Shown here: positions 17,128 to 37,964 of the stretch, piece by piece
Position numbering within the stretch: the stretch's first letter is position 1
Layout of the letters: each line of letters begins with the position of its first letter
NCBI GenBank assembly: GCA_030765235.1
Contig: JAVCCW010000029.1
Location: forward strand, 311,666-375,665
From: Candidatus Gorgyraea atricola
GTDB taxonomy: Bacteria > Omnitrophota > Gorgyraeia > Gorgyraeales > Gorgyraeaceae
DNA length: 64,000 nt
Direction: 5' to 3'
Program-made: the position numbers and the translations under genes
The notes under the pieces: model-generated
Seen by the model: the letters and a program-made list of their open reading frames with translations, nothing else
What the model was told of the DNA's origin: nothing
Database searches by the model: none

Positions 17128-18156
17128 ATGTCTAAAAAATATAATGTTGCAATAGTCGGAGCTACTGGGGTAGTGGGTAGCGAGTTTATAAAGGTATTGG
17201 AAGAGAGACGGTTTCCTGTTAAGGAGATTCGTTTGCTGGCATCTGGCCGCTCAAAAGGCAAGATGCTAAAGTTTTATGGAAAGGATTATGAGGTACAGGA
17301 GCTTACCAGGGATTCCTTTAAAGGCATTGAGGTCGCACTGTTTTCAGCAGGAGGAGGCATAAGTAAGGAATTTGCGCCTATTGCTGCAAAAGCAGGAGCG
17401 ATTGTAGTAGATAATTCCAGTGCATGGAGAATGGATCCGGAGGTGCCACTAGTAGTTCCTGAGGTAAATCCTGGCGCAATAAAGAGACACAAGGGTATTA
17501 TTGCAAATCCAAATTGCTCGACTATACAGATGGTAGTTGTCTTAAAGCCGATTCACGACGCTGCAAAGATAAAACGCGTAGTTGTATCCAGCTACCAGTC
17601 TGTATCTGGATGGGGCAAAGAGGCGGTAGATCAGCTTGATGCGGAGATAGAATCATACGTTAGCAACAAGCAACAAGCAACAAGCAACAGGGGGAGTAAA
17701 ATAAAGCGAGTGTTGCCGGCGCAGATCGCGTTTAATGTGATTCCGCATATAGATGTATTCTTGCCAAATAGATACACCAAAGAAGAGATGAAGATGGTAA
17801 ATGAGACTCAGAAGATCATGGAAGATACCAGCATCAAAGTCACTGCGACCTGCGTACGAGTGCCAGTAGTGATCTCACATGCAGAGGCAGTCAATGTTGA
17901 GACTGAGAAAAAATTAAGCGCGGACGAGGCTACCGAGATCCTGAAAAAGGCACCTGGCGTTGAGGTAATAGACGATATATCAAAAGAAAAATACCCCCTT
18001 CCTATAGATGCCGCAGGAAAAGATCCAAGTTATGTTGGCAGGATTCGCGAAGATGAATCCATAAAGAACGGTCTTAATCTCTGGATTGTCAGCGACAATC
18101 TGCGCAAGGGCGCAGCGCTAAACGCAGTCCAAATCGCCGAGCTCTTGATAGCTTGA
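17128..18156 (+). CDS. asd: aspartate-semialdehyde dehydrogenase
   Basis: VAIVGATGVVG Rossmann start; ANPNCSTIQMVV active-site Cys; carries an in-frame heptamer-repeat insert. Confidence 0.9.
   Translation: MSKKYNVAIVGATGVVGSEFIKVLEERRFPVKEIRLLASGRSKGKMLKFYGKDYEVQELTRDSFKGIEVALFSAGGGISKEFAPIAAKAGAIVVDNSSAWRMDPEVPLVVPEVNPGAIKRHKGIIANPNCSTIQMVVVLKPIHDAAKIKRVVVSSYQSVSGWGKEAVDQLDAEIESYVSNKQQATSNRGSKIKRVLPAQIAFNVIPHIDVFLPNRYTKEEMKMVNETQKIMEDTSIKVTATCVRVPVVISHAEAVNVETEKKLSADEATEILKKAPGVEVIDDISKEKYPLPIDAAGKDPSYVGRIREDESIKNGLNLWIVSDNLRKGAALNAVQIAELLIA
17662..17694 (+). repeat. tandem heptamer repeat (AGCAACA)x4 + GGGGG inside asd, in frame (encodes SNKQQATSNRG)
   Basis: agcaacaagcaacaagcaacaagcaacaggggg. 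Confidence 0.65.
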
Positions 18157-18162
18157 GAAAAA

Positions 18163-18187
18163 GCCGAGGCTGGACCTCGGCTTTTTT
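18163..18187 (+). terminator. rho-independent terminator after asd (GCCGAGGCTGGACCTCGGC + TTTTTT)
   Basis: palindrome followed by T-run; same palindrome as 8915-8933. Confidence 0.7.
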
Positions 18188-18196
18188 GATAATCTA

Positions 18197-18940
18197 ATGG
18201 TACGCAATATCCGACTCATAATCGAATACGACGGCACAAGGTTTTGTGGCTGGCAGGCGCAGCGCAAGCGCAAGAGAAAGACAGTGCAGGAAGAGATCGA
18301 AAAGGCAGGGAAAAGACTTTTCGGAAAAAAGATTAGTTTAATAGGCTCTGGACGTACAGATTCTGGCGTGCATGCACAAGCCCAGATAGCAAATTTCAGG
18401 ATAGATTCAAACCTACCTCTGCGTAATATCAAAAAAGGTCTAAATAGCCATCTCCCTAAAGACATCGCGATCCTTTTAGCTGAAGAAGTAAAGCCAAATT
18501 TCCACGCTAGGTTCAATGCAAAAGAAAAACTTTACAAATATACAATCATAAATAGAAAAGTCCGCTCGCCTTTATTGAATAGACATGCAGCATTAGTTTT
18601 TTATAATCTGGATCTAAAAGCAATGCGAAAGGGCGCTGGCTATTTAATCGGCAAGAAAAACTTTAAATCATTCCAGACATCTGACAAAAAAGAAAAAGAT
18701 CCTGTAAGAAAAATTACAAGACTCAGCATCACAGGCAAGCTGCCTTTAATAGAGATATATATCCAGGCAAACGGGTTTCTCTATAATATGGTCCGTAATA
18801 TTGTGGGCACATTGATAGATGTGGGTAGAGGCAGGACAAAACCAGAGGCAGTTAAGGAGATTTTGAAAAAGCGGCATCGCGTATCAGCTGGCCAAACTGC
18901 CCCTGCAAAGGGGCTGTGTTTAGTTGAGGTGTTTTACTAA
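18197..18940 (+). CDS. truA: tRNA pseudouridine(38-40) synthase
   Basis: RLIIEYDGTRFCGWQAQ; GSGRTDSGVHA catalytic Asp motif. Confidence 0.85.
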   Translation: MVRNIRLIIEYDGTRFCGWQAQRKRKRKTVQEEIEKAGKRLFGKKISLIGSGRTDSGVHAQAQIANFRIDSNLPLRNIKKGLNSHLPKDIAILLAEEVKPNFHARFNAKEKLYKYTIINRKVRSPLLNRHAALVFYNLDLKAMRKGAGYLIGKKNFKSFQTSDKKEKDPVRKITRLSITGKLPLIEIYIQANGFLYNMVRNIVGTLIDVGRGRTKPEAVKEILKKRHRVSAGQTAPAKGLCLVEVFY

Positions 18941-18954
18941 AGCCCCTTACCCAA

Positions 18955-19012
18955 CCCTCTCCTCTGTAGGCCGGGTTTAAACCCGGCCTACAGAGGTGGT
19001 GTAGGGAGAGGG
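18955..19012. repeat. palindrome CCCTCTCCTCTGTAGGCCGGGTTTAAACCCGGCCTACAGAGG...GGGAGAGGG (REP-like, family of 10716-10761)
   Basis: shares CTCTGTAGGCCnGGTTTAAACCnGGCCTACAGAG core with the opp intergenic copy. Confidence 0.6.
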
Positions 19013-19019
19013 AGAAAGG

Positions 19020-19523
19020 GTGAGGAGAGTATATGACATGGGCTACAAAGTCGCTTTAGAAAAATCATGGGAAGTGCTTCAGGAATCTGGGAAGAAAAGT
19101 GTAAGATTCCTAAACGACGAGTACGAAGTGGACTTTTCTAAAAAATCAGTCCTTTCATTGTCCTCTCATGTTGAGGCAAAGGAATATTATAAGATTTTAA
19201 TCCTTCATTACCTTGCAAATGAACACAAGGTTTCAAATATTGAGAATGATAAGTGGATTTCTTTCAAAGAATTAGAAGGCGGCAAGGAGTATTTTTCAGC
19301 ATTTCGTAACAGGGCGATAGAACCTATCCTGAGAAAATATGGAGATAGTTCTAAAGATGTATCTATCCAGATTTTTCCTAAGATAAATGTCCAGGTTAAG
19401 GTCTGGGCAAAGGACGAGGAGTTTGACGCAGATTGTAATATGCTATTTAACGAGAGCATTAAAGAGATCCTTCCAACAGAAGACGTAGCTGTTCTTGGCG
19501 GTATAGTAGCTTCGCAAATATGA
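19020..19523 (+). CDS. hypothetical protein
   Basis: 167-aa ORF with no motif I can assign. Confidence 0.45.
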   Translation: MRRVYDMGYKVALEKSWEVLQESGKKSVRFLNDEYEVDFSKKSVLSLSSHVEAKEYYKILILHYLANEHKVSNIENDKWISFKELEGGKEYFSAFRNRAIEPILRKYGDSSKDVSIQIFPKINVQVKVWAKDEEFDADCNMLFNESIKEILPTEDVAVLGGIVASQI

Positions 19524-20317
19524 TGAAAAACATTATCTATATAATAATCGCTGTAGTCTTTATATTTGGATATATACGCTATTTTGAATATAAGTCGCTT
19601 TATTTTCCAATGAAGGAGATAGAGATCACGCCAAGCGCTGTGGGGCTTAGCTATGAGGATGTGTATTTCCAGGCTGAGGATGGTGTTAAGATTAATGCAT
19701 GGTTTATACCAGCAAAGGATTCGAGGTTTACTCTGCTATTTTCGCATGGCAATGGCGGCAATATAAGCCACAGGGTAGAGAAGATTTTATTTTTAAATGG
19801 GTTGGGCCTGGATGTCTTTATCTTTGACTATCGTGGATATGGGAAAAGTTCTGGCAGGCCATCTGAAAAGGGATTTTATAAGGATATGGATGCAGCGTAT
19901 GATTGTCTGGTGACTAAGAGAAAAATTTCACCGGAACGTATCATACCTTATGGTGAGTCTTTAGGCGGCCCAGTAGCGCTTGAACTTGCTCGAAAGAAAG
20001 AGGTAAGGGCCGTGATTACAGAATCCACGTTTAGCTCTACTATGGATATGGCAAAGGCGCTTTATCCAATATTCCCAAGTTTTCTCATGGCAGAAAGATT
20101 CGATTCGCTAGCTAAGATCAAAGACGTAAAAGTACCCAAACTCATTATCCACAGCAAAAACGACGACATCGTACCATTTAGCCTCTCTCTAAAACTCTTT
20201 AACTCCGCCCCAGACCCCAAAACCCACCTAATCCTAATAGGCAGCCATAACAGCGCTTACGTGGATTCAAAAGACGTATACCTATCAGGAATTAGTGAAT
20301 TTTTGAGAGGCTTATGA
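19520..20317 (+). CDS. alpha/beta hydrolase with N-terminal membrane anchor
   Basis: N-terminal TM helix; HGNGGN oxyanion-hole region and GESLGG nucleophile elbow. Confidence 0.65.
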   Translation: MMKNIIYIIIAVVFIFGYIRYFEYKSLYFPMKEIEITPSAVGLSYEDVYFQAEDGVKINAWFIPAKDSRFTLLFSHGNGGNISHRVEKILFLNGLGLDVFIFDYRGYGKSSGRPSEKGFYKDMDAAYDCLVTKRKISPERIIPYGESLGGPVALELARKKEVRAVITESTFSSTMDMAKALYPIFPSFLMAERFDSLAKIKDVKVPKLIIHSKNDDIVPFSLSLKLFNSAPDPKTHLILIGSHNSAYVDSKDVYLSGISEFLRGL

Positions 20318-21192
20318 AAACCAAAGTTTACTACGAGGTGGATCCGCATAATAGGCTTGTTATTAAGAGCCCGTCGAAGAAGTCTAATGTAAAGAAGTTT
20401 CGCAGGGTTGTTGAAGGCCGGTTTAGGGCAGATGGGAAAAATCGGCTGTATTACGAGGTTTTTAAATCTTCCAAGAGTGACACTCCTCAAAAGATAAAAT
20501 TTTCTGGCAAATATTCTCTGGATAAAAAGCATAATCTTATTTATACGTTAGATAAGTGGAGTAATCAGTGTGAGGGCAATCGACTTAGGTTAAAGACGAA
20601 ACTTCTGGATGCTGGAAAGAATGAGATCATGTTTTTAGTTCAGTCTCGAGATCCTTCTAAGGGTAAGAGGCGTATTTATACAATGAAGCTGCATGGCAAA
20701 TGGCAGGCAGATAAGAATAATAGGCTTTGTTTTGGGATAGAAAAGACCAGGAATAAATTAACCTTATCAAATGCATGGCAGATAAACAAGAACAATGAGA
20801 TAGTCTATAAATATGGCAGACAGCCAGAGGCTATTGTGTTAAAAGGTAAATGGCAGATAAGGAAAAAACATAGATTGGGATATGTCTTGGAGAAAAGACT
20901 CGATTCTGGATTTAACTTCAGGACATCGCTTGGCCAGATAGTGCCAAAGAAAAAAAAGACATACCTAAAGTTCGATGTTATTATAGATATAACAAAGAGG
21001 AAGAGGATAAAAAGAAAAATTACTTTTTGCGGTACGTGCAAGCTTACTAAAGATGGAAGGATTTTATTAGAAATGTCTCCTGGTAAAGAAAAGAAACTTA
21101 GCCTGAAATTAACAAAGCGCATGGCCTATATTGAGTCTTTTATTAAAGGCAGGGAAAGATATTTAGGCGGAGGTATTGCTTTTAGATGGTAG
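20314..21192 (+). CDS. hypothetical lysine-rich protein with internal repeats
   Basis: recurring GKWQxxKxxRL / NRLYYEV-like segments; no known domain recognised. Confidence 0.45.
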   Translation: MKTKVYYEVDPHNRLVIKSPSKKSNVKKFRRVVEGRFRADGKNRLYYEVFKSSKSDTPQKIKFSGKYSLDKKHNLIYTLDKWSNQCEGNRLRLKTKLLDAGKNEIMFLVQSRDPSKGKRRIYTMKLHGKWQADKNNRLCFGIEKTRNKLTLSNAWQINKNNEIVYKYGRQPEAIVLKGKWQIRKKHRLGYVLEKRLDSGFNFRTSLGQIVPKKKKTYLKFDVIIDITKRKRIKRKITFCGTCKLTKDGRILLEMSPGKEKKLSLKLTKRMAYIESFIKGRERYLGGGIAFRW

Positions 21193-23750
21193 AGTATAGT
21201 TTAATCAAAAATTTTGATAACTCAGTAGAGCAGTTTAAGGATAAGGTTGCTATTTTATCTGGTTCAACGTCACTGACTTATGCAGAGCTTGGCGAGAAGA
21301 TAAAAAATACCGCATGTTACATATCTTCATTAGGCATTGAAAAAGGTGACAGGGTTGCGATCATTCTTGATAATGGGCCAGAGTTTGCGAGCGTATTTTT
21401 TGCATTGGCTTATATAGGCGCGGTCGCGGTTCCTCTTGATCCAAGGATGACAGAGAAGGATGTAGCAAACATCATGTCTGACTCTGGCGCAAAGATCCTT
21501 CTTACAATTGATAAAATAAAAGAACTAGACCCACCGCAAGTTTTTGAGAAAGCCATAGTAGAACCAGACGACCTTATAGTGCTGCTTTACACCTCTGGCA
21601 CCACAGACCTTCCAAAAGGTGTAATGCTCACGCATAAGAATCTGTGCTCGAATTTTAATTCTTTGAGGAAGATGAAGATCTTTACGCCAAAGGATACGAT
21701 ATTATCAATTCTCCCGCTTTACCATTCCTATTCACTCATGACTACGCTTATCGCGCCTCTTTTTTCAGGTTCAAAGATCGTGTATGTCTCTAGTGACTGG
21801 CCAGAGAAATTAGCTGACTATATAAAGGAAGCTGGAACAACCGTATTTATAGGTGTACCGCAGATTTATCACATGATGCATTCGCGCATGATTAAAAAGC
21901 TTAGCAGTATAGAAGGCCTTAAGGGGCTATTTGTAAAATCAGTAATAGCTCTTGGCCTTACAAAGGTACTTTTGCCCAAGGTCAAAAACGCCTTTGGAAA
22001 AAGGCTTCGCTTTTTTATAAGCGGCGGCGCAAAGCTGGATGCTACAGTGGCAAGGGATTTTTTCAAGCTTGGCTTTAAGATATTGGAAGGCTATGGCCTG
22101 ACTGAAACTTCTCCTGTTGCAAGTATAAATCCAGTGAAAAGGCCAAAGATAGGGTCGATTGGCACGCCTGTTCCTGATGTAAGGATGAGGATCTTGAATC
22201 CAGATTCCAGCGGCGTAGGCGAGATCGTGATCCAGGGCCCAAATGTCATGAAAGGCTACTATAAGAATGAGGAAAAGACAAAAGAGGTGCTTAAGAATAA
22301 CTGGTTTTATTCAGGCGACCTGGGATACAAGAATAGAGATGGATATTTTTATATTACAGGCAGGTCTAAAGAGGTGATAGTACTTAGCTCAGGCAAGAAT
22401 ATCTATCCTGAGGAGATTGAAAAGCATTATTCGAATACGTCCTACATAAAAGAAATGTGTGTTATAGGCGTATTAAAGGGAAAAGGCAATAGTAAGCTTG
22501 AATATCTGCATGCGATTGTTGTACCAGACCTTGAGTTTTTTAAAGAGCGCGGCGAAATGAATGTGAATCAAGTGTTAAAGGCCACATTTGATAATCTCTC
22601 TAAAGACATACCTGGCTATAGGCATATCATGGGATTTACTGTGACAAAAGAGGCTCTGTCGCGTACTGTGCTGGGCAAGCTCAAGCGATATGAGATCGAG
22701 AAAAAATTCCTTCCTGTTATTTTAGAAGAGACAGAGGAAGAAAAAGCTGTGAGTCCAGAAGATCAGGCTTTGCTTCAATCTGATACAGCGAAAAGGCTAA
22801 TAGCGTGCATAAAGGATGCGCTTGAGATAAAAGGGGATGCGCATCTTAATGACAGTATTGAGCTTGATCTGGGAGTGGATTCACTTACCAGGGTAGAGCT
22901 TGTTCTGGCTGTTGAGAAGTGTTTTAACATAGAGATATCGGATGAGATGATCGCGGCGGGGATATTTACGGTTAAGGATATTCTTACGAAAGTTGAAGAA
23001 CTCTTGGCAAGTGACAAGCGACAAGTGACAAGCGACAAGGGCGTGGAAAGAGCTATTCACTGGGCTGGGATTTTGAAGCAGGAATTGGCAAAGGATTTTC
23101 AGGACAAGATATCGTTGGAGTTGAGCTGGATAGATTATGTGTTTACTTTTATAATTAAAGGGTGCGTTGGTTTATTTTTCAGGATTTTTTATAGGCTCAA
23201 GGTAGAAGGCGCGGAAAAGATACCTAAGAAAGGGCCTTATGTTTTATGTGTGAATCATACTAGTTTCCTGGACGGGTTTATTGTACTATCTGGTGTGCCG
23301 CTTAGGACAGAACTTGAGTTATTCTTTATTGGATTCAGGAGATATTTTATAGTGCCTATCATAAGGAATCTTGTAAGGCGCTCAAGGATCATTCCTGTAG
23401 ATGCCACGCAGATCATAGAGGCAATGCAAGGCTCTGCGTATATCCTGAAGCACAATAAGGCCCTCTGTATATTCCCTGAGGGAGAGCGTTCTATTGACGG
23501 CGAGGTAAAGGAATTCAAGAAAGGTATTGGCATAATTGCAAAAGAACTAAATGCGCCACTTGTACCGGTTTATATCAATGGCGCTTTCAAAGCCTGGCCC
23601 AGGACACAGAAATTTCCAAAACTACACCCTATTAGCATAAAATTTGGCAGTCCTGTTGCACCTGATGTGTTAGCCAAGAAAGGCGACGCAAAAGACGAAC
23701 ACGAAGCAATTGCTGCAGGTATAAGAGGAGAGGTAATTAACCTTGGGTAA
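21186..23750 (+). CDS. tri-domain fusion: acyl-CoA/acyl-ACP synthetase (AMP-binding) + acyl carrier (PP-binding) domain + 1-acyl-sn-glycerol-3-phosphate acyltransferase (Aas-like)
   Basis: LLYTSGTTDLPKGV AMP motif; DSLTRVEL phosphopantetheine site; NHTSFLD (HX4D) and FPEGERS acyltransferase motifs; 854 aa. Confidence 0.75.
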   Translation: MVEYSLIKNFDNSVEQFKDKVAILSGSTSLTYAELGEKIKNTACYISSLGIEKGDRVAIILDNGPEFASVFFALAYIGAVAVPLDPRMTEKDVANIMSDSGAKILLTIDKIKELDPPQVFEKAIVEPDDLIVLLYTSGTTDLPKGVMLTHKNLCSNFNSLRKMKIFTPKDTILSILPLYHSYSLMTTLIAPLFSGSKIVYVSSDWPEKLADYIKEAGTTVFIGVPQIYHMMHSRMIKKLSSIEGLKGLFVKSVIALGLTKVLLPKVKNAFGKRLRFFISGGAKLDATVARDFFKLGFKILEGYGLTETSPVASINPVKRPKIGSIGTPVPDVRMRILNPDSSGVGEIVIQGPNVMKGYYKNEEKTKEVLKNNWFYSGDLGYKNRDGYFYITGRSKEVIVLSSGKNIYPEEIEKHYSNTSYIKEMCVIGVLKGKGNSKLEYLHAIVVPDLEFFKERGEMNVNQVLKATFDNLSKDIPGYRHIMGFTVTKEALSRTVLGKLKRYEIEKKFLPVILEETEEEKAVSPEDQALLQSDTAKRLIACIKDALEIKGDAHLNDSIELDLGVDSLTRVELVLAVEKCFNIEISDEMIAAGIFTVKDILTKVEELLASDKRQVTSDKGVERAIHWAGILKQELAKDFQDKISLELSWIDYVFTFIIKGCVGLFFRIFYRLKVEGAEKIPKKGPYVLCVNHTSFLDGFIVLSGVPLRTELELFFIGFRRYFIVPIIRNLVRRSRIIPVDATQIIEAMQGSAYILKHNKALCIFPEGERSIDGEVKEFKKGIGIIAKELNAPLVPVYINGAFKAWPRTQKFPKLHPISIKFGSPVAPDVLAKKGDAKDEHEAIAAGIRGEVINLG
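23010..23043 (+). repeat. tandem heptamer repeat (GTGACAA/GCGACAA)x4 + GGG in frame inside the Aas-like gene (encodes SDKRQVTSDKG)
   Basis: agtgacaagcgacaagtgacaagcgacaagggc. Confidence 0.65.
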
Positions 23751-23792
23751 CTTCGTAAGTTGTCCATTTGGACAACTTACGAAGTTACCCAA
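23743..23792. terminator. near-perfect 23-bp hairpin TTGGGTAACTTCGTAAGTTGTCC-loop-GGACAACTTACGAAGTTACCCAA overlapping the stop of the Aas-like gene
   Basis: seen directly; no T-run, so terminator versus structural element is unresolved. Confidence 0.5.
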
Positions 23793-23811
23793 GGTAGAAC
23801 AGGGGGATTGT

Positions 23812-24084
23812 ATGAGCAAAGTAACAGTTAAAAAGCCCACCAAGGAAGAGCTGCAGAAGTTAGGCGTGGACAAATGGCCTACATGGACGAGTGAGGTAAA
23901 GAAATTTGACTGGGAATATAGCGACAACGAGACATTTTATGTGCACGAAGGCAAGGTAAAGGTAATCATAACTGACGGCCAGGAAGTCGAATTCGGCAAA
24001 GGCGACCTCGTAACATTCCCCAAAGGCGTAAAATGCACATGGGACGTAAAAGAATCTATCCGTAAGGTCTATAATTTCGGATAA
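23812..24084 (+). CDS. cupin-domain small protein (DUF861-like)
   Basis: ~90 aa with FPKGVKCTWDVKESIRKVYNFG C-terminus typical of small cupins; start moved to ATG 23812 with GGGGGA Shine-Dalgarno; the upstream extension is the hairpin. Confidence 0.55.
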   Translation: MSKVTVKKPTKEELQKLGVDKWPTWTSEVKKFDWEYSDNETFYVHEGKVKVIITDGQEVEFGKGDLVTFPKGVKCTWDVKESIRKVYNFG

Positions 24085-24087
24085 GTT

Positions 24088-24191
24088 AACCCCATTCCAA
24101 ATTCTGAGTGACGCGTAATTTATTTTTTGGAACTACTTGCGTGCAATTCTTAAAGATTATTTGATGATCTTTAAGAATTTGGAACGGGGTT
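24088..24191. mobile_element. MITE-like element, ~104 bp, terminal inverted repeats AACCCCATTCCAAATTC / GAATTTGGAACGGGGTT
   Basis: TIRs seen directly; internal palindrome aattcttaaagat...atctttaagaatt; related TIRs at 47.5 and 47.85 kb. Confidence 0.5.
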
Positions 24192-24247
24192 CAATTCGTA
24201 CAGTGAGTTACGAAAATCAGAGATTTCCGTAACTCAGGTGCTCATTG

Positions 24248-24301
24248 AAATGCACCTGGGATGTAAAGCAACCCATCCGCAAAGTCTATAACTTTGGATA
24301 A
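24248..24301 (+). pseudogene. duplicated, diverged fragment of the 3' end of the cupin gene (KCTWDVKQPIRKVYNFG*)
   Basis: ~80% nt identity to 24031-24084 including the stop codon; lies just beyond the MITE-like element. Confidence 0.45.
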
Positions 24302-24346
24302 CTTTACATTTTAGGTCTTGCTTTAAATGTAAAGTTATGTTATAAT
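24296..24346 (+). promoter_or_regulatory. inverted repeat AACTTTACATTT-N13-AAATGTAAAGTT containing the 25-mer AGGTCTTGCTTTAAATGTAAAGTTA, followed by an extended -10 TGTTATAAT
   Basis: 25-mer repeated exactly at 44679-44703 (uvrA 5' UTR); half-site shared with the inverted repeat at 27220-27262. Confidence 0.4.
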
Positions 24347-24354
24347 CTTTTTGA

Positions 24355-25605: not shown

Positions 25606-25625
25606 AAAAACCTGGGAGCCATTTT

Positions 25626-27185: not shown

Positions 27186-27219
27186 GATAGGTCCCCGCTT
27201 TCGCGGGGATGACAACTGG

Positions 27220-27262: not shown

Positions 27263-27276
27263 GTCGAATATTTCGC

Positions 27277-27304
27277 TTGACAGAGGTGGGTTTTATGGTA
27301 TAAT
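27277..27304 (+). promoter_or_regulatory. sigma70-type promoter TTGACA-16-TATAAT for rplM-rpsI
   Basis: consensus hexamers read directly from the sequence. Confidence 0.5.
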
Positions 27305-28163: not shown

Positions 28164-28189
28164 AGATATAAAACTATAATTTTCCATAA

Positions 28190-28253
28190 AAGCCTATCTT
28201 GCTTTTTCCGACGAGGAAATCAATTGACAAGATAGGCTTTTTTATTTTATAAT
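28190..28253 (+). terminator. rho-independent terminator after rpsI (stem AGCCTATCTTG/CAAGATAGGCT + T-run) overlapping a TTGACA-18-TATAAT promoter for argC
   Basis: stem-loop followed by TTTTTTATTTT; -35/-10 hexamers at 28224-28229 / 28248-28253. Confidence 0.55.
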
Positions 28254-28279
28254 CGTCTATAACACAGACGGAGGACAAT

Positions 28280-30468: not shown

Positions 30469-31310
30469 TGGAAGAAGCGATTAGAAAATCAGCAGTTTTA
30501 ATAGAGGCGTTACCTTATATGAAGGCGTACGCTAGTAAGATATTTGTTATAAAGTACGGCGGCAGTGCGCTCATAGATCCTGAGATAAAAAGGCGCGTGC
30601 TTCAGGATATTGTGTTTATGAGCTATGTTGGGATCAGGCCTATTCTTGTACATGGCGGCGGACCTTTTATAAATGAGGAACTAAAAAAAACAGGAGGGAA
30701 GATAGAATTTAAAGACGGCCTCAGGGTCACGTCAAAAGAGACCATGGAAGTGGTCGATAGAGTCTTAACCGGGGTCAATCAAAGTATCGCGGACGATATT
30801 AAAAAGATAGGCGGCAGGGCTGTGAGTTTAAATAAAGTTGTAAGGGCCAAGCCGCATAAAGAGGCTAAGAAATTAGGTTTCGCGGGAGAGGTTGACACTA
30901 TAAAATCTGACGTGATCAGAAAAGCAGTAAGGCCAAGATCAGTGCCTATAATATCGTCAGTGGGTTTTGGCGCAGATAATAAATCGTATAATATAAATGC
31001 GGATGATGTGAGCTCAGAGGTAGCTGTTGCTGTTAAGGCAGTGAAGCTGGTATTATTGACAGATGTCAAAGGTATTATGAAGAAAAAGGAAGACGAGAAG
31101 ACACTGATCTCTGCTCTGACTATGGAAGAGACAGAAAGGCTCATAGATGAAAATGTTATCCAGGGCGGCATGATACCAAAGGTCAAGGCATGTACAAACG
31201 CTCTGGCAGGAGGCGTGTCAAAGACTCACATAATCGATGGCAGGCTCCCGCACAGTTTGCTGCTGGAGATTTTTACAGACAAAGGAATCGGAACGGAGAT
31301 AGTAAGATGA
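30465..31310 (+). CDS. argB: acetylglutamate kinase
   Basis: VIKYGGSAL, VHGGGP motifs. Confidence 0.9.
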   Translation: MMEEAIRKSAVLIEALPYMKAYASKIFVIKYGGSALIDPEIKRRVLQDIVFMSYVGIRPILVHGGGPFINEELKKTGGKIEFKDGLRVTSKETMEVVDRVLTGVNQSIADDIKKIGGRAVSLNKVVRAKPHKEAKKLGFAGEVDTIKSDVIRKAVRPRSVPIISSVGFGADNKSYNINADDVSSEVAVAVKAVKLVLLTDVKGIMKKKEDEKTLISALTMEETERLIDENVIQGGMIPKVKACTNALAGGVSKTHIIDGRLPHSLLLEIFTDKGIGTEIVR

Positions 31311-32482
31311 ATACACACGAGCTGATCGCGCAGTACGAGAAGTATGTAATGAAGACTTATACGAGGATCCCCTCTGTTATAGTTAAAGGTAAGGGGCTGA
31401 AGGTGTGGGATCTGGATGGTAATGAGTATCTGGATTTTTTTCCTGGCTGGGCTGTGAGCGGGTTAGGCCACTGTCATCCAGAGGTCGTGAATGCTATAAG
31501 GAATTATGTAAAAAAGATCATACATGTATCCAATAATTATTACAACATGCTCCAGGGAAAGCTGGCGCAGGAGATAATCGAGAATTCCTTTAAAGGTAAA
31601 GTATTTTTCTGCAATAGCGGCGCAGAGGCAAATGAGGGCGCGATAAAGCTGGTCAGGGCCTATGGTGTAGCAAATGGAAAATACGAGATCATCACGATGC
31701 AGAATTCTTTTCATGGGAGGACACTCGCGACCATAACAGCTACTGGACAGCCAAAATACAGCAAGGATTTCGTGCCATTACCAGTTGGTTTTAAGTCAGT
31801 GCCTTTTAATGATATAAAAGCGCTGGAGGCTGGCATAACAGATAAGACTATAGCTATAATGTTAGAGCCAATACAGGGTGAGGGCGGAATAAATGTTGCG
31901 CATGATGACTATATAAAGGAAGTAAGAGAACTTTGCGATAAAAAAGGTTTGATCCTGATATTTGATGAAGTGCAGACAGGCATGGGTAGGACCGGTAAGA
32001 TGTTTTGTTTTCAACATTATGGTGTAGAGCCTGATGTTATGACACTTGCCAAGTCTTTGGCTGGCGGGATCCCGATAGGCGCGCTTGTCGCGTCGAAAAA
32101 ATACGCGGATGTTTTAAAGCCTGGCATGCACGCGTCTACTTTTGGAGGAAGCCCTATTGCATGCAGCGCAGCGCTGGGTGTATTCGAGGCTATAAAAAGA
32201 GAAAAGCTTCTTAAGAATACACAGGAGATGGGAAAATATCTGGTTGAAAAATTGAATGAGCTCAAAAAGAAAAAATCTATTATAAAGGAGATCAGAGGTA
32301 AAGGCCTTATGATAGGCATGGAGCTTAAGATTGAAGGCGCGGCTATAGTGGAGGCGTGTTTTAAAGAGAAGCTGTTGATCAATTGCGCGCATGGCAATGT
32401 ATTAAGACTTATGCCTGGTATAATAGTAACCAAAAAGCAAATAGACAAGGCGATTGAAATTTTGGATAAGGTGATGATTTGA
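31307..32482 (+). CDS. argD: acetylornithine aminotransferase
   Basis: class-III aminotransferase (DEVQTGMGRTGK); start ATG 31307 overlaps argB stop as ATGA; upstream in-frame extension in ORF track rejected. Confidence 0.85.
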   Translation: MNTHELIAQYEKYVMKTYTRIPSVIVKGKGLKVWDLDGNEYLDFFPGWAVSGLGHCHPEVVNAIRNYVKKIIHVSNNYYNMLQGKLAQEIIENSFKGKVFFCNSGAEANEGAIKLVRAYGVANGKYEIITMQNSFHGRTLATITATGQPKYSKDFVPLPVGFKSVPFNDIKALEAGITDKTIAIMLEPIQGEGGINVAHDDYIKEVRELCDKKGLILIFDEVQTGMGRTGKMFCFQHYGVEPDVMTLAKSLAGGIPIGALVASKKYADVLKPGMHASTFGGSPIACSAALGVFEAIKREKLLKNTQEMGKYLVEKLNELKKKKSIIKEIRGKGLMIGMELKIEGAAIVEACFKEKLLINCAHGNVLRLMPGIIVTKKQIDKAIEILDKVMI

Positions 32483-32501
32483 ATAAAAAATGGAGTTATT
32501 T

Positions 32502-33380
32502 ATGAAAAAGGATCTTATAACAATTAAAGATTTATCAGCGCAGGAGATAGGCGAGCTCTTTGAACTCGCAGCTAAGTTCAAGGCCAAGAGAAAGACGCAT
32601 GAGACGCCGCTAAAGAATAAAACTCTGGGTCTAGTTTTTGAAAAGCCGTCGAATAGGACAAGGGTGTCTTTTGAGGTCGGCATGTTTGAGCTGGGCGGGA
32701 ATGCTATTTACTTAGGGGAGAGCGAGGTCAAGCTAGGCAAGAGGGAGTCTGCGAAGGACGCGGCAATGGTGCTCTCAAGATACCTTGACGCAATGGTCAT
32801 AAGGACGTTTTCTCATGATAGATTGCTTGAGATGGCAAAGAATTCTACGATACCTGTAATAAATGGACTGACAGACCTGCTTCACCCATGTCAGGCATTG
32901 AGTGATCTGTTTACAATAAAGGAAAAAAAGGGACTAAAGAATATTACTGTAGCTTTTGTTGGGGATGGCAACAATGTAGTGAATTCGCTCTTGAATGGGT
33001 GTGATAAGCTGGGTATTAAGATAAAAGTCGCGTGTCCAAAAGGCTATGAGCCAAAGGTCGATGCAGGCCAGCTTTTTAATTCGCCTCAAGAAGCAGTTAA
33101 GGATGCGGACATTATTTATACGGACGTGTGGACGAGCATGGGTAAGGAAAAAGAGCAAAAAGAAAGAGCAGAGATATTTAAGAAGTTTCAGATCAATTCT
33201 AAGCTGATGAAATCAGCAAAGAAAGACGCAATGGTAATGCATTGCCTGCCAGCGCACAGGGGCGAAGAGATCACAGACGAGGTAATAGACAGCCCACAAT
33301 CTATTGTAATTGACCAGGCAGAGAATAGGCTCCACGTGCAGAAGGCAATACTTGTGAAATTATTAGGAGATAAATCATGA
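32502..33380 (+). CDS. argF: ornithine carbamoyltransferase
   Basis: STRTRVSFE carbamoyl-phosphate motif, HCLP; ATG 32502 preferred (GGAG 8 nt upstream). Confidence 0.85.
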   Translation: MKKDLITIKDLSAQEIGELFELAAKFKAKRKTHETPLKNKTLGLVFEKPSNRTRVSFEVGMFELGGNAIYLGESEVKLGKRESAKDAAMVLSRYLDAMVIRTFSHDRLLEMAKNSTIPVINGLTDLLHPCQALSDLFTIKEKKGLKNITVAFVGDGNNVVNSLLNGCDKLGIKIKVACPKGYEPKVDAGQLFNSPQEAVKDADIIYTDVWTSMGKEKEQKERAEIFKKFQINSKLMKSAKKDAMVMHCLPAHRGEEITDEVIDSPQSIVIDQAENRLHVQKAILVKLLGDKS

Positions 33381-34555
33381 AGAATAAAAAGGTGGTTTTA
33401 GCGTATTCAGGCGGGTTAGATACTTCGGTGGCTGTGAGATGGCTTACAGATAAGGGCTATGATGTTGTTGCCTACATGGCTGATGTGGGCCAGGGCGGGA
33501 ATTTTCAGAAGCTCAAGAAAAGGGCCTTGTCTACAGGTGCCTCAAAGGTCGTGATCGAGGATCTCAAAGACGAATTTGCAAAAGACTTTGCCTTTCAGTC
33601 GTTAAAGGCAGGCGCAGTCTATGAATCAAAGTATCTATTGGCAACCGCGCTTTCAAGGCCGATCATCGCAAAGGGCCTGGTGCAGACCGCGAAAAAGGAA
33701 AAGGCTAGTTTTATCGCGCATGGCTGTACAGGAAAAGGCAATGACCAGGTAAGGTTCGAGGTCACTGCAATGGCGCTTGCGCCTGAGCTCGGCATACTGG
33801 CGCCGCTCAGGGAATGGAATATGTATTCCAGAGACGAAGAAATAGAGTATGCAAAGGAAAAAGGCATAGACATAGATGTTACGAAAAAAAGCCCTTATAG
33901 TTTAGATCAGAATATTTGGGGAATAAGCATTGAGTGTGGCGTGCTAGAAGATCCATGGAATGAGCCGCCAGAAGACGCGTATAAAATGAGTATTGATCCA
34001 AAAATGGCGCCAAATAAATCAACATATGTAGAGATCGAGTTTAAAAATGGCATACCAGTAAAGATCAATGGAAAAAAATACGCGGCAGTGGATCTGGTAA
34101 TGAAGCTCAATAAGATCGGCGGCAAAAATGGCATAGGCAGGACTGATCTTGTTGAGAATAGACTCGTTGGCATTAAATCAAGGGAGATATATGAGGCGCC
34201 AGGGGCGTGGATCTTACATAAGGCGCATAAGGATTTAGAGGCGCTTGTGCTCGACAGGGAGCTGTTGCATTTTAAGGAAGTTATTTCCTTAAAATACGCG
34301 GAGCTTATATATTACGGCTTATGGTTTACACCTTTAAAAAAGGCGCTGGACGGATTTATAAACCAGACGCAGAAGAATGTAACAGGCAGTGTGAAGATGA
34401 AGCTGTTAAAGGGTCTTGCGAGTGTAGTAGGGAGAAAATCAGCGCACTCACTTTATAAAAAAGAAATGGCAACATATGACCCAGGCGATAAGTTCGACAG
34501 GACCATTGCGGAAGGATTTATTAAAGTGTGGGGAATGCCGTATAAAAAGGTGTAA
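33377..34555 (+). CDS. argG: argininosuccinate synthase
   Basis: VVLAYSGGLDTSV PP-loop. Confidence 0.9.
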   Translation: MKNKKVVLAYSGGLDTSVAVRWLTDKGYDVVAYMADVGQGGNFQKLKKRALSTGASKVVIEDLKDEFAKDFAFQSLKAGAVYESKYLLATALSRPIIAKGLVQTAKKEKASFIAHGCTGKGNDQVRFEVTAMALAPELGILAPLREWNMYSRDEEIEYAKEKGIDIDVTKKSPYSLDQNIWGISIECGVLEDPWNEPPEDAYKMSIDPKMAPNKSTYVEIEFKNGIPVKINGKKYAAVDLVMKLNKIGGKNGIGRTDLVENRLVGIKSREIYEAPGAWILHKAHKDLEALVLDRELLHFKEVISLKYAELIYYGLWFTPLKKALDGFINQTQKNVTGSVKMKLLKGLASVVGRKSAHSLYKKEMATYDPGDKFDRTIAEGFIKVWGMPYKKV

Positions 34556-34617
34556 GGTGTCAAGTGTCAGGTGTCAGGGAAGGTGCCTTGACACCTGACA
34601 CCTTTAACCTGACACTA
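34548..34617. repeat. heptamer-repeat hairpin (GGTGTCA-type units x4 + GGG, then reverse-complement arm) between argG and argH
   Basis: aaggtgtaaggtgtcaagtgtcaggtgtcagggaaggtgccttgacacctgacacctttaacctgacact. Confidence 0.6.
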
Positions 34618-34632
34618 ACAAGGAGTCCAAAT

Positions 34633-35940
34633 ATGTCAAAGATGTGGGGTGGGAGATTTAACAAGAAAACAGATCCTTTGGTCGAGGAATTTACAAAGTC
34701 GATTCAGTTTGATAAAAAATTGGCTGAATATGATTGTGTGGGATCCCTTGCGCATATTGGAGTGCTTAAAAATGCGAAGCTCTTGACTGGTAAGGAGCAT
34801 AAAGAATTGCAGACGGGCCTGAATGCTATTTTGTCATCGATCAAAAAAGGCACCCTTAAGGTAGATGAGTCTTTCGAAGACATTCATAGCTATATGCAGC
34901 ATCTTCTGGAGAAAAAACTCGGCAAGGTAGCTTTGAAGCTGCATACCTGTAGATCCAGAAATGACCAGGTAGCGCTAGACACAAAACTTTATTGTTTAAA
35001 AAATATTTCGATTGCACTGGAGCTTGTTTCGCAGACAATAAAGAAATTGGCAAAGCTATCCAAGGACAATGCAAAGCAGATCATACCTGCTTATACGCAC
35101 CTGCAGCATGCTATGCCAGTGAGCTTATCTCATTATCTTGATGCATATATTCAGATGTTTTCAAGGGACGCCAAGAGATTAGGCGCTATCTTTGATGATA
35201 TGGAGCCGACCATGGGCGCTGGTGCTGTTGCTGGAACATGTATTGATTCATCAAAGTATAAGATTGATTCAAAACCTTGCAGTCCTGTTAATTCCATAGA
35301 CAGCGTGAGTGACAGGGATTTTGTTGTAGAGATATTGAGTGCCCTGGCAATATCAGGGATGCATCTATCAAGACTGGCAGAGGATCTGATCCTGTGGTCG
35401 ACAAAGGAGTTTGATTTTATTGACATAGATGACGCGTTTTGCACTGGAAGTTCTCTTATGCCGCAGAAGAAAAATCCTGATGTACTGGAGCTCATAAGAG
35501 GCAATGCAGGAAAATTGTATGGCAATTTGATGAGCGTATTAGTAATGATGAAGGGACTACCTTTATCATACAATAGAGACATGCAGCTTGATAAAGAGCC
35601 GCTTTTTAGTTCATTTGAGATCATTCAGGATGAGTTTAGTATTTTGGCAAAACTTTTGCCAAAAATAAAATTCAAGAAAGAAAATATCGCAGAGCAGCTC
35701 AAGGATGAAAGCCTGTACGCTACTGACATGGCTGATTATCTGGTGCAAAAAGGAGTTGCTTTTAAGGACGCGCATACTGTCATCGGCAAACTTGTTAAAA
35801 ATGGCAAAGAGATAAAAGAGATGAAAAACGAGGAACTTCAGAAATTTCATCCTTTGCTGACTCATAAGGCAGTAAAAAAGATCATAGATCCAAAGAGATC
35901 AGTAGCATCTAAAAAATCTATCAGAAGAAAGAAAAGGTAA
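34633..35940 (+). CDS. argH: argininosuccinate lyase
   Basis: MSKMWGGRFNKKTDPLVEEF start; fumarate-lyase signature GSSLMPQKKNPD; ORF-track start 34564 lies inside the repeat hairpin. Confidence 0.9.
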   Translation: MSKMWGGRFNKKTDPLVEEFTKSIQFDKKLAEYDCVGSLAHIGVLKNAKLLTGKEHKELQTGLNAILSSIKKGTLKVDESFEDIHSYMQHLLEKKLGKVALKLHTCRSRNDQVALDTKLYCLKNISIALELVSQTIKKLAKLSKDNAKQIIPAYTHLQHAMPVSLSHYLDAYIQMFSRDAKRLGAIFDDMEPTMGAGAVAGTCIDSSKYKIDSKPCSPVNSIDSVSDRDFVVEILSALAISGMHLSRLAEDLILWSTKEFDFIDIDDAFCTGSSLMPQKKNPDVLELIRGNAGKLYGNLMSVLVMMKGLPLSYNRDMQLDKEPLFSSFEIIQDEFSILAKLLPKIKFKKENIAEQLKDESLYATDMADYLVQKGVAFKDAHTVIGKLVKNGKEIKEMKNEELQKFHPLLTHKAVKKIIDPKRSVASKKSIRRKKR

Positions 35941-35943
35941 GCT

Positions 35944-37176
35944 ATGCATGACTTCAAATACAAACGTAATGAACTTTATTGTGAATCTGTGAGCATAGAA
36001 AAGCTTGCCAGAAGGTATGGCACGCCTCTATATGTTTACAGCAAAAAGACATTTCTGGATCATTACAGAAAATTACGGGATGCGTTTAGGAGAGTAAAAC
36101 CACTTATCTGTTATTCAGTAAAGGCGAATTCGAATCATTCAATATTAAAGACGCTTATTGCTTCAGGCGCGGGCCTGGATATAGTATCTGGCGGCGAGCT
36201 TTACAGGGCGCTTAAGGCAGGGGCTTCGCCAAGGAAGATCGTGTATGCAGGTGTTGGCAAAACAGAAAAAGAGATAGAGTTTGCCATCAAGAGCAATATC
36301 CTGCTTTTTAATGTTGAGTCTTTGCCTGAACTCGAGATGATCAATAAAGTTGCTGGTAGGTTGCGCAAGAAGCAAGCTGTTGCGATCCGCGTAAATCCGG
36401 ATGTAAAGGCGCGTACGCATAAATATATCACCACAGGACACAAACAGAATAAATTTGGCATTGATATTGAGGCTGCGAGAGGTATTTTCCTGTGTCATCG
36501 AGAATTTAGAAATCTGGATATTACGGGCGTGCATCTACATATTGGTTCGCAGATAGTTGACGCAAGGCCGTTTGTGAAAGCCATTGAGAAACTGGTAAGT
36601 TTTGTCCGGAACCTTGAAAAAGCTGGTATAAGGATAAAATGGTTTAATGTCGGCGGGGGCCTTGGAATAATCTATTCCGGCGAGAGGCCGCAGACTGCCC
36701 AGGAATACGCAAAGGCAGTTTTGCCGCTGCTCAAAAAGCTAAATGCCAGGATAATACTTGAGCCAGGCAGGTTTATCGCAGGGAACGCAGGCATACTCGC
36801 TGCAAAGACCATATATATAAAGGAGACACCCAGCAAAAATTTTGCCATAGTGGACAGCGCCATGAATGATCTGGTGAGGCCGAGCCTTTACCATGCCTAT
36901 CATGAGATATTGCCTGTTAGATCCAAATCCTACAAAGGTGATATACGCAGATACGATGTTGTAGGCCCTATTTGTGAAAGCGGAGACTTTCTGGGCAAAG
37001 ACAGGAAATTTATTGACTTAAAACAAGGGGATTTGCTGGCTATCATGAGCGCAGGCGCATATGGCTACAGCATGGCCAGCACCTATAATTCCAGGCCAAG
37101 GCCAGCAGAGGTCCTGGTAGACAGAACTCGCGCCAAACTAGTAACACAGCGCGAAACCTACAAAGATTTAAGATGA
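35944..37176 (+). CDS. lysA: diaminopimelate decarboxylase
   Basis: YSVKANSN PLP-lysine motif; Orn/DAP/Arg decarboxylase family 2. Confidence 0.9.
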   Translation: MHDFKYKRNELYCESVSIEKLARRYGTPLYVYSKKTFLDHYRKLRDAFRRVKPLICYSVKANSNHSILKTLIASGAGLDIVSGGELYRALKAGASPRKIVYAGVGKTEKEIEFAIKSNILLFNVESLPELEMINKVAGRLRKKQAVAIRVNPDVKARTHKYITTGHKQNKFGIDIEAARGIFLCHREFRNLDITGVHLHIGSQIVDARPFVKAIEKLVSFVRNLEKAGIRIKWFNVGGGLGIIYSGERPQTAQEYAKAVLPLLKKLNARIILEPGRFIAGNAGILAAKTIYIKETPSKNFAIVDSAMNDLVRPSLYHAYHEILPVRSKSYKGDIRRYDVVGPICESGDFLGKDRKFIDLKQGDLLAIMSAGAYGYSMASTYNSRPRPAEVLVDRTRAKLVTQRETYKDLR

Positions 37177-37964
37177 ATAAGCTAAAATTTACGAAAATGG
37201 TTGGGGCTGGGAATGATTTTGTCTTGATTGATATTAGGGACAAGAGACAAGGAACAAGGGACAAGGGCTGGTCTAGGGTTGCGCAGGATTTATGTCAGAG
37301 GAAGACTGGGGTTGGTGCGGATGGGTTGCTTGTACTGGAGAAGTCTAAAAGAGCAGATTTTAGGATGCGCATATTCAATGCTGATGGCAGTGAAGCAGAG
37401 ATGTGTGGCAATGGCCTAAGGTGCGCTGCACTATACGTAGGCAAAAAAGGCAAGGCAAAGGTTGAGACAAAAGCAGGTCTTTATGAAGCGACCATTACAG
37501 GTAAAAATAGAGTTAAGATAAAGATGGAAGAACCCAAGGATTTGAAATCAGGTTTTCCGATCAGAGTAAATGATAGGCGCATAAGAGTGAGTTATGTTGA
37601 TACTGGTGTGCCGCATACAGTGGTTTTTGTGCAGGGCATTGAAAAGATAGACGTTGATTCTATTGGCAGAAGTATAAGATATCATAAAGAATTCAAGCCG
37701 CGTGGCACAAATGTTGATTTTGTCGAAATTATAGACGATAAAAATATAAAGATGCGGACGTATGAGCGCGGAGTAGAAGGGGAGACGCTTGCCTGTGGCA
37801 CGGGAGCAGTGGCGGCGGCGATTATAAGTAGTGTCAGGTGTCAGGTGTCAGGTGTCAATGTGCACACAAAAGGTGGGATTTTAAAGGTTTATATTGGTCA
37901 TAAAGGAGTATATTTAGAAGGAGAAGCGCGAAAGGTTTACCAGGGAGAGGTGAATTATGTTTGA
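37173..37964 (+). CDS. dapF: diaminopimelate epimerase
   Basis: FTKMVGAGNDFVLID, two catalytic Cys (MCGNGLRC, LACGTGAVAAA); carries two in-frame heptamer-repeat inserts. Confidence 0.85.
   Translation: MNKLKFTKMVGAGNDFVLIDIRDKRQGTRDKGWSRVAQDLCQRKTGVGADGLLVLEKSKRADFRMRIFNADGSEAEMCGNGLRCAALYVGKKGKAKVETKAGLYEATITGKNRVKIKMEEPKDLKSGFPIRVNDRRIRVSYVDTGVPHTVVFVQGIEKIDVDSIGRSIRYHKEFKPRGTNVDFVEIIDDKNIKMRTYERGVEGETLACGTGAVAAAIISSVRCQVSGVNVHTKGGILKVYIGHKGVYLEGEARKVYQGEVNYV
37247..37278 (+). repeat. in-frame heptamer repeat (GGGACAA/GAGACAA/GGAACAA)x4 + GGGC inside dapF (encodes RDKRQGTRDKG)
   Basis: gggacaagagacaaggaacaagggacaagggc. Confidence 0.65.
37830..37858 (+). repeat. in-frame heptamer repeat (GGTGTCA)x4 inside dapF (encodes VRCQVSGVN)
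   Basis: agtgtcaggtgtcaggtgtcaggtgtcaa. Confidence 0.65.

Follow-up and report, generated by a model that had tools for sequence, protein, structure and literature searches.

Tandem arrays of seven-nucleotide units are scattered over many loci in a 64 kb stretch of DNA from the uncultured bacterium Candidatus Gorgyraea atricola (Omnitrophota), here called the window, where they lie within housekeeping genes such as asd and dapF as well as between genes, many of them paired there into hairpins. The DapF encoded in the window matches a protein of a metagenome-assembled genome of this organism with 100% identity. All long open reading frames (ORFs) of the window are on the + strand and its GC skew is strongly positive. 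Head-to-tail 7-nt copies were confirmed by Tandem Repeats Finder (TRF) and by an autocorrelation scan (criterion, at least 18 of 21 matches), and the period-7 arrays are real: TRF reports them at essentially every coordinate listed in a preliminary description of this DNA. The excess over shuffled sequence, on which that description had agreed beforehand to stand or fall, is sustained. The autocorrelation scan finds eight period-7 arrays in the window against 0.00 in 30 dinucleotide-preserving shuffles of it, which contain no array at any period. Periods 3-6 and 8-13 yield none in the window, and the three arrays called at period 14 are identical with period-7 ones. The resulting density is 12.5 period-7 arrays per 100 kb. 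Few unit families are used per genome, and copy number across 26 arrays (window plus close relatives) ranges from 3.0 to 6.4, with a mode of 4-5.

In-frame arrays in housekeeping genes

Five of the approximately 12-17 arrays are internal to coding sequences (CDSs) and in frame, and two more overlap the C-terminal ends of argG and folK. The five internal sites are listed below.

14987..15054, + strand: leuC-like (aconitase-family) gene; in-frame GGGACAA array, interrupted by an in-frame palindrome of 36 nt nested in it (core 14998-15029).
17662..17694, + strand: asd; in-frame (AGCAACA)4 followed by GGGGG, translated as SNKQQATSNRG within a disordered loop that follows helix 162-179 (TRF 17662-17689, AGCAACA, 4.0 copies, 100%).
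23008..23041, + strand: Aas-like gene, linker between the acyl carrier protein (ACP) and acyltransferase domains; in-frame (GTGACAA GCGACAA)2 followed by GGG, encoding SDKRQVTSDKG (TRF 23008-23039, 4.6 copies; 14-nt period 100%).
37236..37268, + strand: dapF site 1; in-frame degenerate GGGACAA array encoding RDKRQGTRDKG, in coil at residues 21-32 (TRF 37236-37267, 4.6 copies, 84%).
37829..37858, + strand: dapF site 2; in-frame (GGTGTCA)4 encoding VRCQVSGV, at the end of the catalytic-cysteine helix and in the loop (TRF 37831-37857, GTGTCAG, 3.9 copies, 100%).

The leuC-like array is a fifth coding site that the preliminary description did not list; nor did it list the ArgG and FolK reading frames, which terminate inside hairpin arms. 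Its host gene identities hold by Pfam (Asd; AMP-binding, PP-binding and acyltransferase domains in the Aas-like protein; DapF), and translation returns the peptides that it gave (SNKQQATSNRG, SDKRQVTSDKG, RDKRQGTRDKG and VRCQVSGVN). The first dapF array had been misplaced at 37247-37278 and lies at 37236-37268, and the G-run said to end every run is present in three of those four coding arrays but not at dapF site 2.

On the sense strand most coding arrays consist largely of purines, and the peptides that they encode are rich in R, D, K, G, Q, T, S and N. The coding copies are single-arm, 21-35 nt long, with no inverted partner within 70 nt. Long-range pairing between the two dapF sites was considered and rejected: the arrays are direct in one relative (L081) and unrelated in the window and in another (L083). 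Complementary cores in dapF were seen only in L091, between site 1 and a third site.

A location in surface loops had also been proposed, and structure mapping bears it out for Asd, DapF site 1 and the Aas-like linker. In AlphaFold models built on Omnitrophota alignments, the Asd array lies in coil after helix 162-179, with a predicted local distance difference test score (pLDDT) below 50 at residues 182-189, and DapF site 1 is coil at residues 21-32 (pLDDT ~66), whereas DapF site 2, comprising the end of the catalytic-cysteine helix and a short loop, is confidently modelled and not simply a loop. The Aas-like array sits in the interdomain linker between ACP and acyltransferase.

Fixed sites and changing units

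These segments had been taken for lineage-specific insertions. That view stands in so far as the peptides are absent from solved non-Omnitrophota orthologues, and fails within the phylum, where the same positions bear arrays in most orthologues and where the short asd allele of relatives is still a three-unit array. The net gain in length over outside orthologues is small or nil. At the array Asd gains 7-8 residues over 2qz9, the same region being longer still in 2gyy, and DapF gains about 4 residues at site 1 and none at site 2 over solved orthologues. The Aas-like linker has a similar length in distant homologues, with no net gain; an insertion is not demonstrable from those homologues, close relatives being informative there.

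In alignments of 32 and then 120 Omnitrophota DapF sequences and of 120 Omnitrophota Asd sequences, the asd loop and both dapF sites appear in most orthologues as hypervariable peptides with a seven-residue period, differing in unit and length (e.g. RFSVFGSRFS, RISYIVYRIS, RVKGEGWRVE, SNKRQVTSDK and KLDARCSMLDAR); orthologues without arrays also exist. Residue identity at lag 7 is 0.15 in Asd, 0.19 at DapF site 1 and 0.22 at DapF site 2, against ~0.04-0.10 at other lags; the control segments are flat, without a peak at lag 7. Lengths fall into discrete classes: DapF site 1 measures either 8 amino acids ('empty', 29 proteins) or 14-15 (59 proteins), and site 2 measures 6, 12-13 or 20-21. The steps of about seven amino acids equal 21 nt, or three heptamers, so that the reading frame is kept. 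Coding regions are thought to exclude repeat units that are not multiples of three.

Distant Omnitrophota dapF genes carry arrays at the same positions and at a third site, built from AAGGTCA, CGATTAC, ACTACAA, GGAGTTA/AACTCCA and even octamers. The octamer arrays CAAAGTCG and CTGGCAAA occupy the same hot spots in one Omnitrophota dapF (L096, 2461-3333), and the period is therefore not strictly seven in every lineage. Among 167 collected loci, the dapF genes from outside the Omnitrophota contain no arrays. One dapF on a metagenome contig (L120, 3847-4606) is frameshifted after residue ~176 (after EFKPK), outside its arrays, and may be a pseudogene or an assembly error.

Scans with DapF of genome and metagenome contigs, which gave mostly distant relatives (<=66% identity) among the matches listed, served as controls. 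In 1.93 Mb of dapF-centred loci from many phyla there are 54 period-7 arrays, whereas no other period between 4 and 12 exceeds 7, in agreement with published accounts of heptanucleotides as the most abundant long class of simple sequence repeat (SSR), for which an origin in polymerase-footprint slippage has been proposed (both as summarised in PMC4679880). The density in this 1.93 Mb of other loci is ~2.8 period-7 arrays per 100 kb. A Deltaproteobacteria metagenome-assembled genome (L066, 61% GC) has six period-7 arrays in 11 kb (1368-1443, 10718-10794), an array-plus-inverted-arm hairpin included, so that the architecture exists outside the Omnitrophota; another hairpin of this make lies in L105 (900-930).

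The sites are thus stable over a phylum, yet their units are replaced between close relatives. Syntenic contigs of 86-90% nucleotide identity, retrieved by exact-protein look-ups, carry unrelated arrays between conserved flanks in dapF, asd, the Aas-like gene and the leuC-like gene, as set out here.

leuC-like gene: GGGACAA (split) in the window; (GAAGGGY)3 in L167; intact (GGGACAA)4 in L169.
asd: (AGCAACA)4 in the window; (GGGTGTA)3, exactly 21 nt shorter, in L167 and L169; (GCTCGAT)5 in L168.
Aas-like gene: GYGACAA in the window; CACGGGC in the L081/L167 column; GAAGGGT in the L083/L169 column.
dapF site 1: GGGACAA in the window and in L081; (GGTTCTC)5 in L083; no repeat in L085.
dapF site 2: (GGTGTCA)4 in the window; (GGGACAA)4 in L081 and in L083; short and without repeat in L085.
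argG/argH hairpin: GGTGTCA in the window; GGGACAA in L083; none in L085.

The few unit families involved (GGGACAA, GGGTGWA, GGTGTCA and others) recur in differing combinations over the fixed sites. In the 79 DapF proteins with both sites filled, within-protein sharing of 3-mers is 0.66 against 0.17 in permuted pairs (4x; 0 of 2000 permutations reach it), a figure confounded by shared ancestry, although unit repertoires specific to lineages are just what is at issue. Irregular strings, GGGTGTAGGGTGAA in both asd and Aas of L169 and AGTGTCAGGTGTCAGG in both dapF site 2 and an argG/argH arm of the window, are common to separate sites, a pattern that favours copying from one site to another over drift that is local and independent. 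The arrays are shown to occupy fixed 'landing pads' (permissive loops, linkers, C-termini of housekeeping proteins and intercistronic junctions) common to the Omnitrophota and, judging from the sequences compared, are not one-off lineage-specific invasions.

The units GGGACAA and GGTGTCA are related by reverse complementation of a 4-nt core with the flanks kept (GG-GACA-A / GG-TGTC-A; arms T-TGTC-CC / T-GACA-CC), as seen when window 34546-34617 is set against L083 7344-7413 and window 37829-37858 against L081 1170-1200; this may be a coincidence or a clue to rewriting.

Hairpins between genes and other palindromes

Outside genes, the window holds five hairpins and one single-arm array, given here with folding free energy (dG), z score against shuffles and TRF call.

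268..405, + strand: long imperfect hairpin upstream of glgA (409-1815); TGTGAGT-like heptamers, 5' arm G/T-rich, 3' arm ACTCACA-like; dG -67.3, z -6.4; TRF 269-309.
34546..34617, + strand: argG/argH hairpin, GGTGTCA/TGACACC, with the argG stop in the first units of the 5' arm; dG -41.9, z -5.8; TRF 34548-34578/34589-34615.
40709..40786, + strand: aat/folK hairpin, GGGACAA/TTGTCCC, loop GTTAGATAC; dG -37.8, z -6.7; TRF 40709-40739/40753-40783.
41192..41262, + strand: folK/panC hairpin, a second copy of that element, with the folK frame crossing the 5' arm and ending at a TAG in the loop; dG -39.6, z -5.4; TRF 41194-41226.
52590..52716, + strand: long hairpin between exbD and a TonB-like gene, AAATCCC/GGGATTT heptamers; dG -67.1, z -9.6; TRF 52591-52713.
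53602..53637, + strand: single-arm intergenic array, five copies of AGCTGAY/AGCTGAA, directly upstream of an AAGGAGG ribosome-binding site (RBS) and a small ORF (53652-53918); TRF 53605-53636.

All six had been described as palindromic hairpins, which is true of five (z -5.4 to -9.6); the array given as 53604-53639 is single-arm (z = -0.7). In the hairpin forms an array is joined to its own inverted copy, and arms and coding arrays draw on the same unit families, as the preliminary description held. The ACAAG+NN family (GGGACAA, GTGACAA, GCGACAA, GAGACAA, GCAACAA) supplies leuC, asd, Aas, dapF site 1 and the two hairpins flanking folK, and GGTGTCA is common to dapF site 2 and the argG/argH hairpin. 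To speak of one superfamily is nevertheless too strong, since the AAATCCC, TGTGAGT and AGCTGAT units have only period and architecture in common with the rest.

The aat/folK hairpin (5' arm AAGTGACAAGGGACAAGAGACAAGAGACAAGGG, loop GTTAGATAC, irregular 3' arm CCTTGTCCCATGTCCCTTGTTGCTTGTCCC) is identical at 75 of 77 positions (97.4%) in the window and L083, against 77% for the adjacent third codon positions of aat. The closer relative L081 lacks it and has an overlapping stop and start codon at that junction. The folK/panC copy, with nearly the same loop and 3' arm, occurs only in the window, being absent from L081 and L083, and the argG/argH hairpin of L083 has the same loop as the aat/folK element. 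The hairpins thus display presence/absence polymorphism and duplication, in line with the invasion of intergenic DNA put forward in the preliminary description, and this one behaves as a copied element rather than as a product of local slippage. In having near-identical copies at unrelated sites (aat/folK and folK/panC in the window; aat/folK and, with the same loop, argG/argH in L083), the hairpin forms behave like elements of the repetitive extragenic palindromic (REP) or miniature inverted-repeat transposable element (MITE) type.

The folK and panC starts (40786-40800 and 41262-41270) follow directly on hairpins, with no recognisable Shine-Dalgarno sequence; in L081 stop and start codons overlap, which couples the translation of both genes. 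For the TonB-like gene (52652-52722), the longest ORF starts in the loop of the AAATCCC/GGGATTT hairpin and would translate its whole 3' arm, and an ATG at ~52722 may be the true start. Three known kinds of element were considered and set aside. No heptamer hairpin is called as an intrinsic terminator on the + strand, and a T tail is missing. An integron attC site was dismissed on inspection, the GTTAGAT string lying in the loop and not at the outer ends, and synteny being conserved without the hairpins. Binding sites of the CsrA (GGA) and HutP (period-7 UAG) types were dropped, most units lacking the motifs.

Some arrays are themselves interrupted. The window leuC-like array is split by a 36-nt in-frame palindrome (14998-15033; CCCCATACGAAAATC AAA GATTTCGTACGGGG...), is intact in L169, and belongs to a protein of 442 amino acids against 420 in relatives; no second copy of the palindrome was found in the window or in 169 loci. 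In other Omnitrophota, inserts of 23-39 nt split dapF site-2 arrays (L087 ~7870-7990; P0078, P0091, P0099, P0101, P0106, P0114, P0119) and encode PFDWSRGKQ/PCDCAKGKQ or APNHLLRSGTGHG, longer ones encoding TPRRSLSRAKSRDSGQ or LSLSKG/PELVEG-type peptides. The latter are typical of GC-rich palindromic repeats. In cyanobacteria, small dispersed repeats reportedly insert into heptamer arrays; the nested insertions seen here (window 14998-15033; L087 dapF) resemble that arrangement, and the leuC-like palindrome recalls the very small dispersed repeats that have such arrays as their targets.

Further palindromes lie in the window. One near-perfect intergenic palindrome (AAAGTAGACAAAACAG[T/A]CA plus its inverse) occurs twice (4842-4880 and 48851-48893), giving 4 half-sites where 0.1 are expected; it has no relation to the heptamers, and none of the 169 loci contains it. 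A second, perfect one (CCTCTGTAGGCC[A/G]GGTTT...) is also present twice (10716-10761 and 18961-18996), and its second copy looks like a lineage-specific insertion, since the truA/DUF3786 junction in which it lies is gap-free in L167 and L169. A third perfect palindrome, with 27-nt arms and a 2-nt spacer (23740-23795), runs across the stop codon of the Aas-like gene. Elsewhere, two near-identical contigs (L084 2300-3430 and L083 1955-3145) differ at argJ: L084 has instead a 196-aa minus-strand gene without a Pfam match, plus a truncated argB.

Origin and significance of the arrays

The repeat class itself is already known. As described by Rehm et al. (2015; PMC4692102), the heptamers of Xanthomonas (GGGAATC) and Nostoc (GGGGAYT) are dispersed over the genome, prefer about four units, are G-rich on the sense strand and often lie between co-directional ORFs, no more than 50 bp from a stop codon. 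The arrays described here are likewise dispersed tandem 7-nt units with a similar copy-number preference (26 arrays, mode 4-5), and the GGGATTT arm at 52656-52713 is almost the same unit. They differ in that about half lie inside CDSs, in frame, so that the coding under-representation of the Rehm heptamers is not seen, in that many units cannot form a G-quadruplex (G4), and in their pairing with inverted copies into hairpins. Short tandemly repeated repetitive (STRR) heptanucleotide sequences of Calothrix and Nostoc (Mazel et al., 1990, as cited in PMC4692102) also comprise several dispersed, lineage-specific unit families per genome. Here both phylum and units are different. To our knowledge, positionally conserved in-frame housekeeping arrays with unit turnover have not been described for cyanobacteria.

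The TAACTGA direct repeats of marine Beggiatoaceae, with 2-6 copies per set (MacGregor, 2015; PMC4679880), resemble our arrays in intergenic abundance, scattered phylogenetic distribution and placement beside start codons (cf. 53602-53637, upstream of the RBS). They consist, however, of one favoured stop-containing unit, essentially excluded from coding DNA, with one inverted set among 170, whereas many stop-free units, CDSs and hairpins are involved here. Rickettsia palindromic elements, in the summary given in PMC10969869 (Ogata et al., 2000, 2002), also place repeat DNA in frame in unrelated metabolic and housekeeping genes at fold-compatible positions, with further intergenic copies. As summarised there, they are whole palindromes of ~100-150 bp in defined sequence families, in contrast to single-arm coding copies of 21-35 nt without a palindrome, at positions common to a phylum and with changing sequence. 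The Omnitrophota survey (PMC10066038) and a 2026 preprint with 176 complete genomes (bioRxiv 10.64898/2026.06.07.730766) make no mention of heptamer arrays or palindromic repeats, and a full-text literature search for Omnitrophota with tandem repeats returned nothing relevant. What is new is that in-frame arrays mark hot spots in housekeeping enzymes throughout the phylum and change length in steps of three units, that units are replaced rapidly in the manner of cassettes, and that hairpins are built from the same arrays.

The reading that we favour, with a probability of roughly 60%, is that the arrays are a dispersed, fast-turning-over heptanucleotide tandem-repeat family, typically of 4-5 units, which is kept by slippage and inter-site copying and which only permissive loops, linkers and gene ends can accommodate. 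By analogy, it would be of the same general kind as the cyanobacterial STRRs and the heptamer SSRs of Xanthomonas, Nostoc and Beggiatoaceae, with a process that works on the DNA and takes little account of the peptide encoded. Arrays would be born and homogenised by slipped-strand or out-of-register repair synthesis favouring a 7-nt register, and one array would be written over by another through ectopic template switching or gene conversion. A single arm could become a hairpin by a fold-back template switch, and selection would then spare only arrays that sit at tolerant positions, keep the frame, contain no stop and are mostly hydrophilic (purine-rich sense strand). Intercistronic hairpins, if they act at all, probably act on polycistronic mRNA as stabilising or processing structures, in the manner of REPs.

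Several points weigh against this explanation. Single 7-nt slippage steps would frameshift essential genes, and slippage leaves unexplained how in asd one array gave way to a perfectly homogeneous five-unit array of unrelated sequence. Copy number is narrow (3-6.4) even in frame-free intergenic arms, unlike the outcome of unconstrained slippage. Conservation of the aat/folK hairpin could reflect purifying selection, and hence function, instead of recent copying. No donor array for AGCAACA, GCTCGAT, GGTTCTC or CACGGGC was found in ~100 kb of relevant genomes, and the evidence base is 64 kb of this genome plus fragments from relatives.

Movement by a dedicated transposase (e.g. a REP-associated tyrosine transposase (RAYT) or an IS200-IS605-type enzyme) of a REP/MITE-like superfamily, as full hairpins between genes and half elements in protein loops, appears unlikely. 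It would account for a hairpin of defined irregular sequence and loop that was copied to a new junction in the window, that is missing from the closest relative and that is 97% conserved against 77% at synonymous sites. It would also suit the three or four arrays that begin with AAGTGACAAG and end with ACAAGGG like the 5' arm of the hairpin, and the other perfect-palindrome families inserted lineage-specifically in this genome. REP, BIME and REPIN elements of Proteobacteria (PMC3116915, PMC3733652) are similarly imperfect intergenic hairpins at gene 3' ends in operons, multi-copy and polymorphic in presence. Yet REPs are 20-40 bp long, bear a GTAG or CGTC tag and are RAYT-linked, whereas the present hairpins are 70-130 nt of tandem heptamers and on inspection carry no such tag, their ends reading AAGTGACAAG... 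and AAGGTGT.... Alignments of filled and empty sites show no clear target-site duplication, the flanks having diverged, and there is no RAYT or transposase-like gene among the 19 window ORFs scanned, which are not all of the window ORFs; the REP-type insertion put forward in the preliminary description finds no backing in these features. Moreover, the coding arrays stand at the same positions throughout the phylum, in many unrelated units (some with no hairpin counterpart) and in 21-nt quanta, which in-place turnover fits better than repeated independent transposition.

We also hold it improbable, to a like degree, that the arrays are selected nucleic-acid elements (sense-strand G4s, junction hairpins or protein sites of ~7 nt per subunit, e.g. 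for cold-shock domains) tuning mRNA stability, processing and translation in long operons. The copy number of 4-5 recalls the G4-forming Xanthomonas and Nostoc heptamers near stop codons on the sense strand (PMC4692102), 9 of the 26 arrays contain four or more G3 tracts spaced by 4 nt, and, hairpin 3' arms excepted, not one of the 26 has a sense strand rich in C. Each heptamer is bound by one CspB molecule (PMC4679880). The hairpins are very stable and lie exactly at junctions in co-directional operons, one is more conserved than neutral sites, and both arms of the argG/argH hairpin switched unit together, keeping their pairing. Against this, the 12 window arrays all fall short of four G3 tracts, no more than two are present in half of the whole set, and AGCAACA, GCTCGAT, GGTTCTC and AGCTGAT cannot form G4s. 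The hairpins are dispensable, both folK junctions being empty in L081 with stop and start codons overlapping. Units at a given site are not conserved, so that no sequence-specific site is maintained, and Rfam 15 gives no match in the window at the gathering threshold.

It is slightly more doubtful that the Omnitrophota, and other uncultured phyla at lower density, run an active 'array-writing' or cassette exchange, in which existing arrays would serve as recombination or priming hot spots and be overwritten in one step by ~4-5 heptamer copies from another site. Such hot spots might arise via G4 or hairpin structures or via a reiterative polymerase. Pilin variation in Neisseria offers a precedent for recombination hot spots at G4 or hairpin structures.

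Selection at the protein level for hypervariable hydrophilic surface loops (for host, predator or phage recognition, or for solubility in ultra-small cells) is very unlikely: it would agree with the purine-rich sense strand, the mostly hydrophilic peptides and the persistence of arrays at loop and linker positions across the phylum, but the hosts are cytoplasmic biosynthetic enzymes, the peptides are not conserved and some are hydrophobic (RFSVLGS, RISYIVY, VLSVKCK), the same units make up non-coding hairpins, and array-less orthologues exist. Least credible of all are contingency loci switching genes by frameshift (phase variation), perhaps tolerable in a host-dependent nanobacterium, because, although a heptamer is not a multiple of three, a single-unit slip would frameshift and Omnitrophota have been proposed to be host-dependent (PMC10066038), every allele in independent assemblies is in frame with differences in multiples of 21 nt, the arrays are short (4-5 units), and the lone frameshifted dapF (L120) is broken outside its arrays.

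Essential enzymes (Asd, DapF and the LeuC-like protein) thus tolerate in-frame 7-nt arrays at phylum-conserved positions, which offers a natural experiment on slippage versus ectopic conversion versus transposition and on why seven is preferred. The arrays inflate apparent protein divergence, and the low-complexity loops that they encode confuse alignment and structure prediction; they could also serve as fine-scale strain markers in Omnitrophota metagenomics. Turnover driven by an enzyme would constitute a new way of diversifying sequences at chosen targets, and array-writing, if true, would mean that a site-directed mechanism operates across the phylum and keeps rewriting particular protein loops and intercistronic RNA hairpins.

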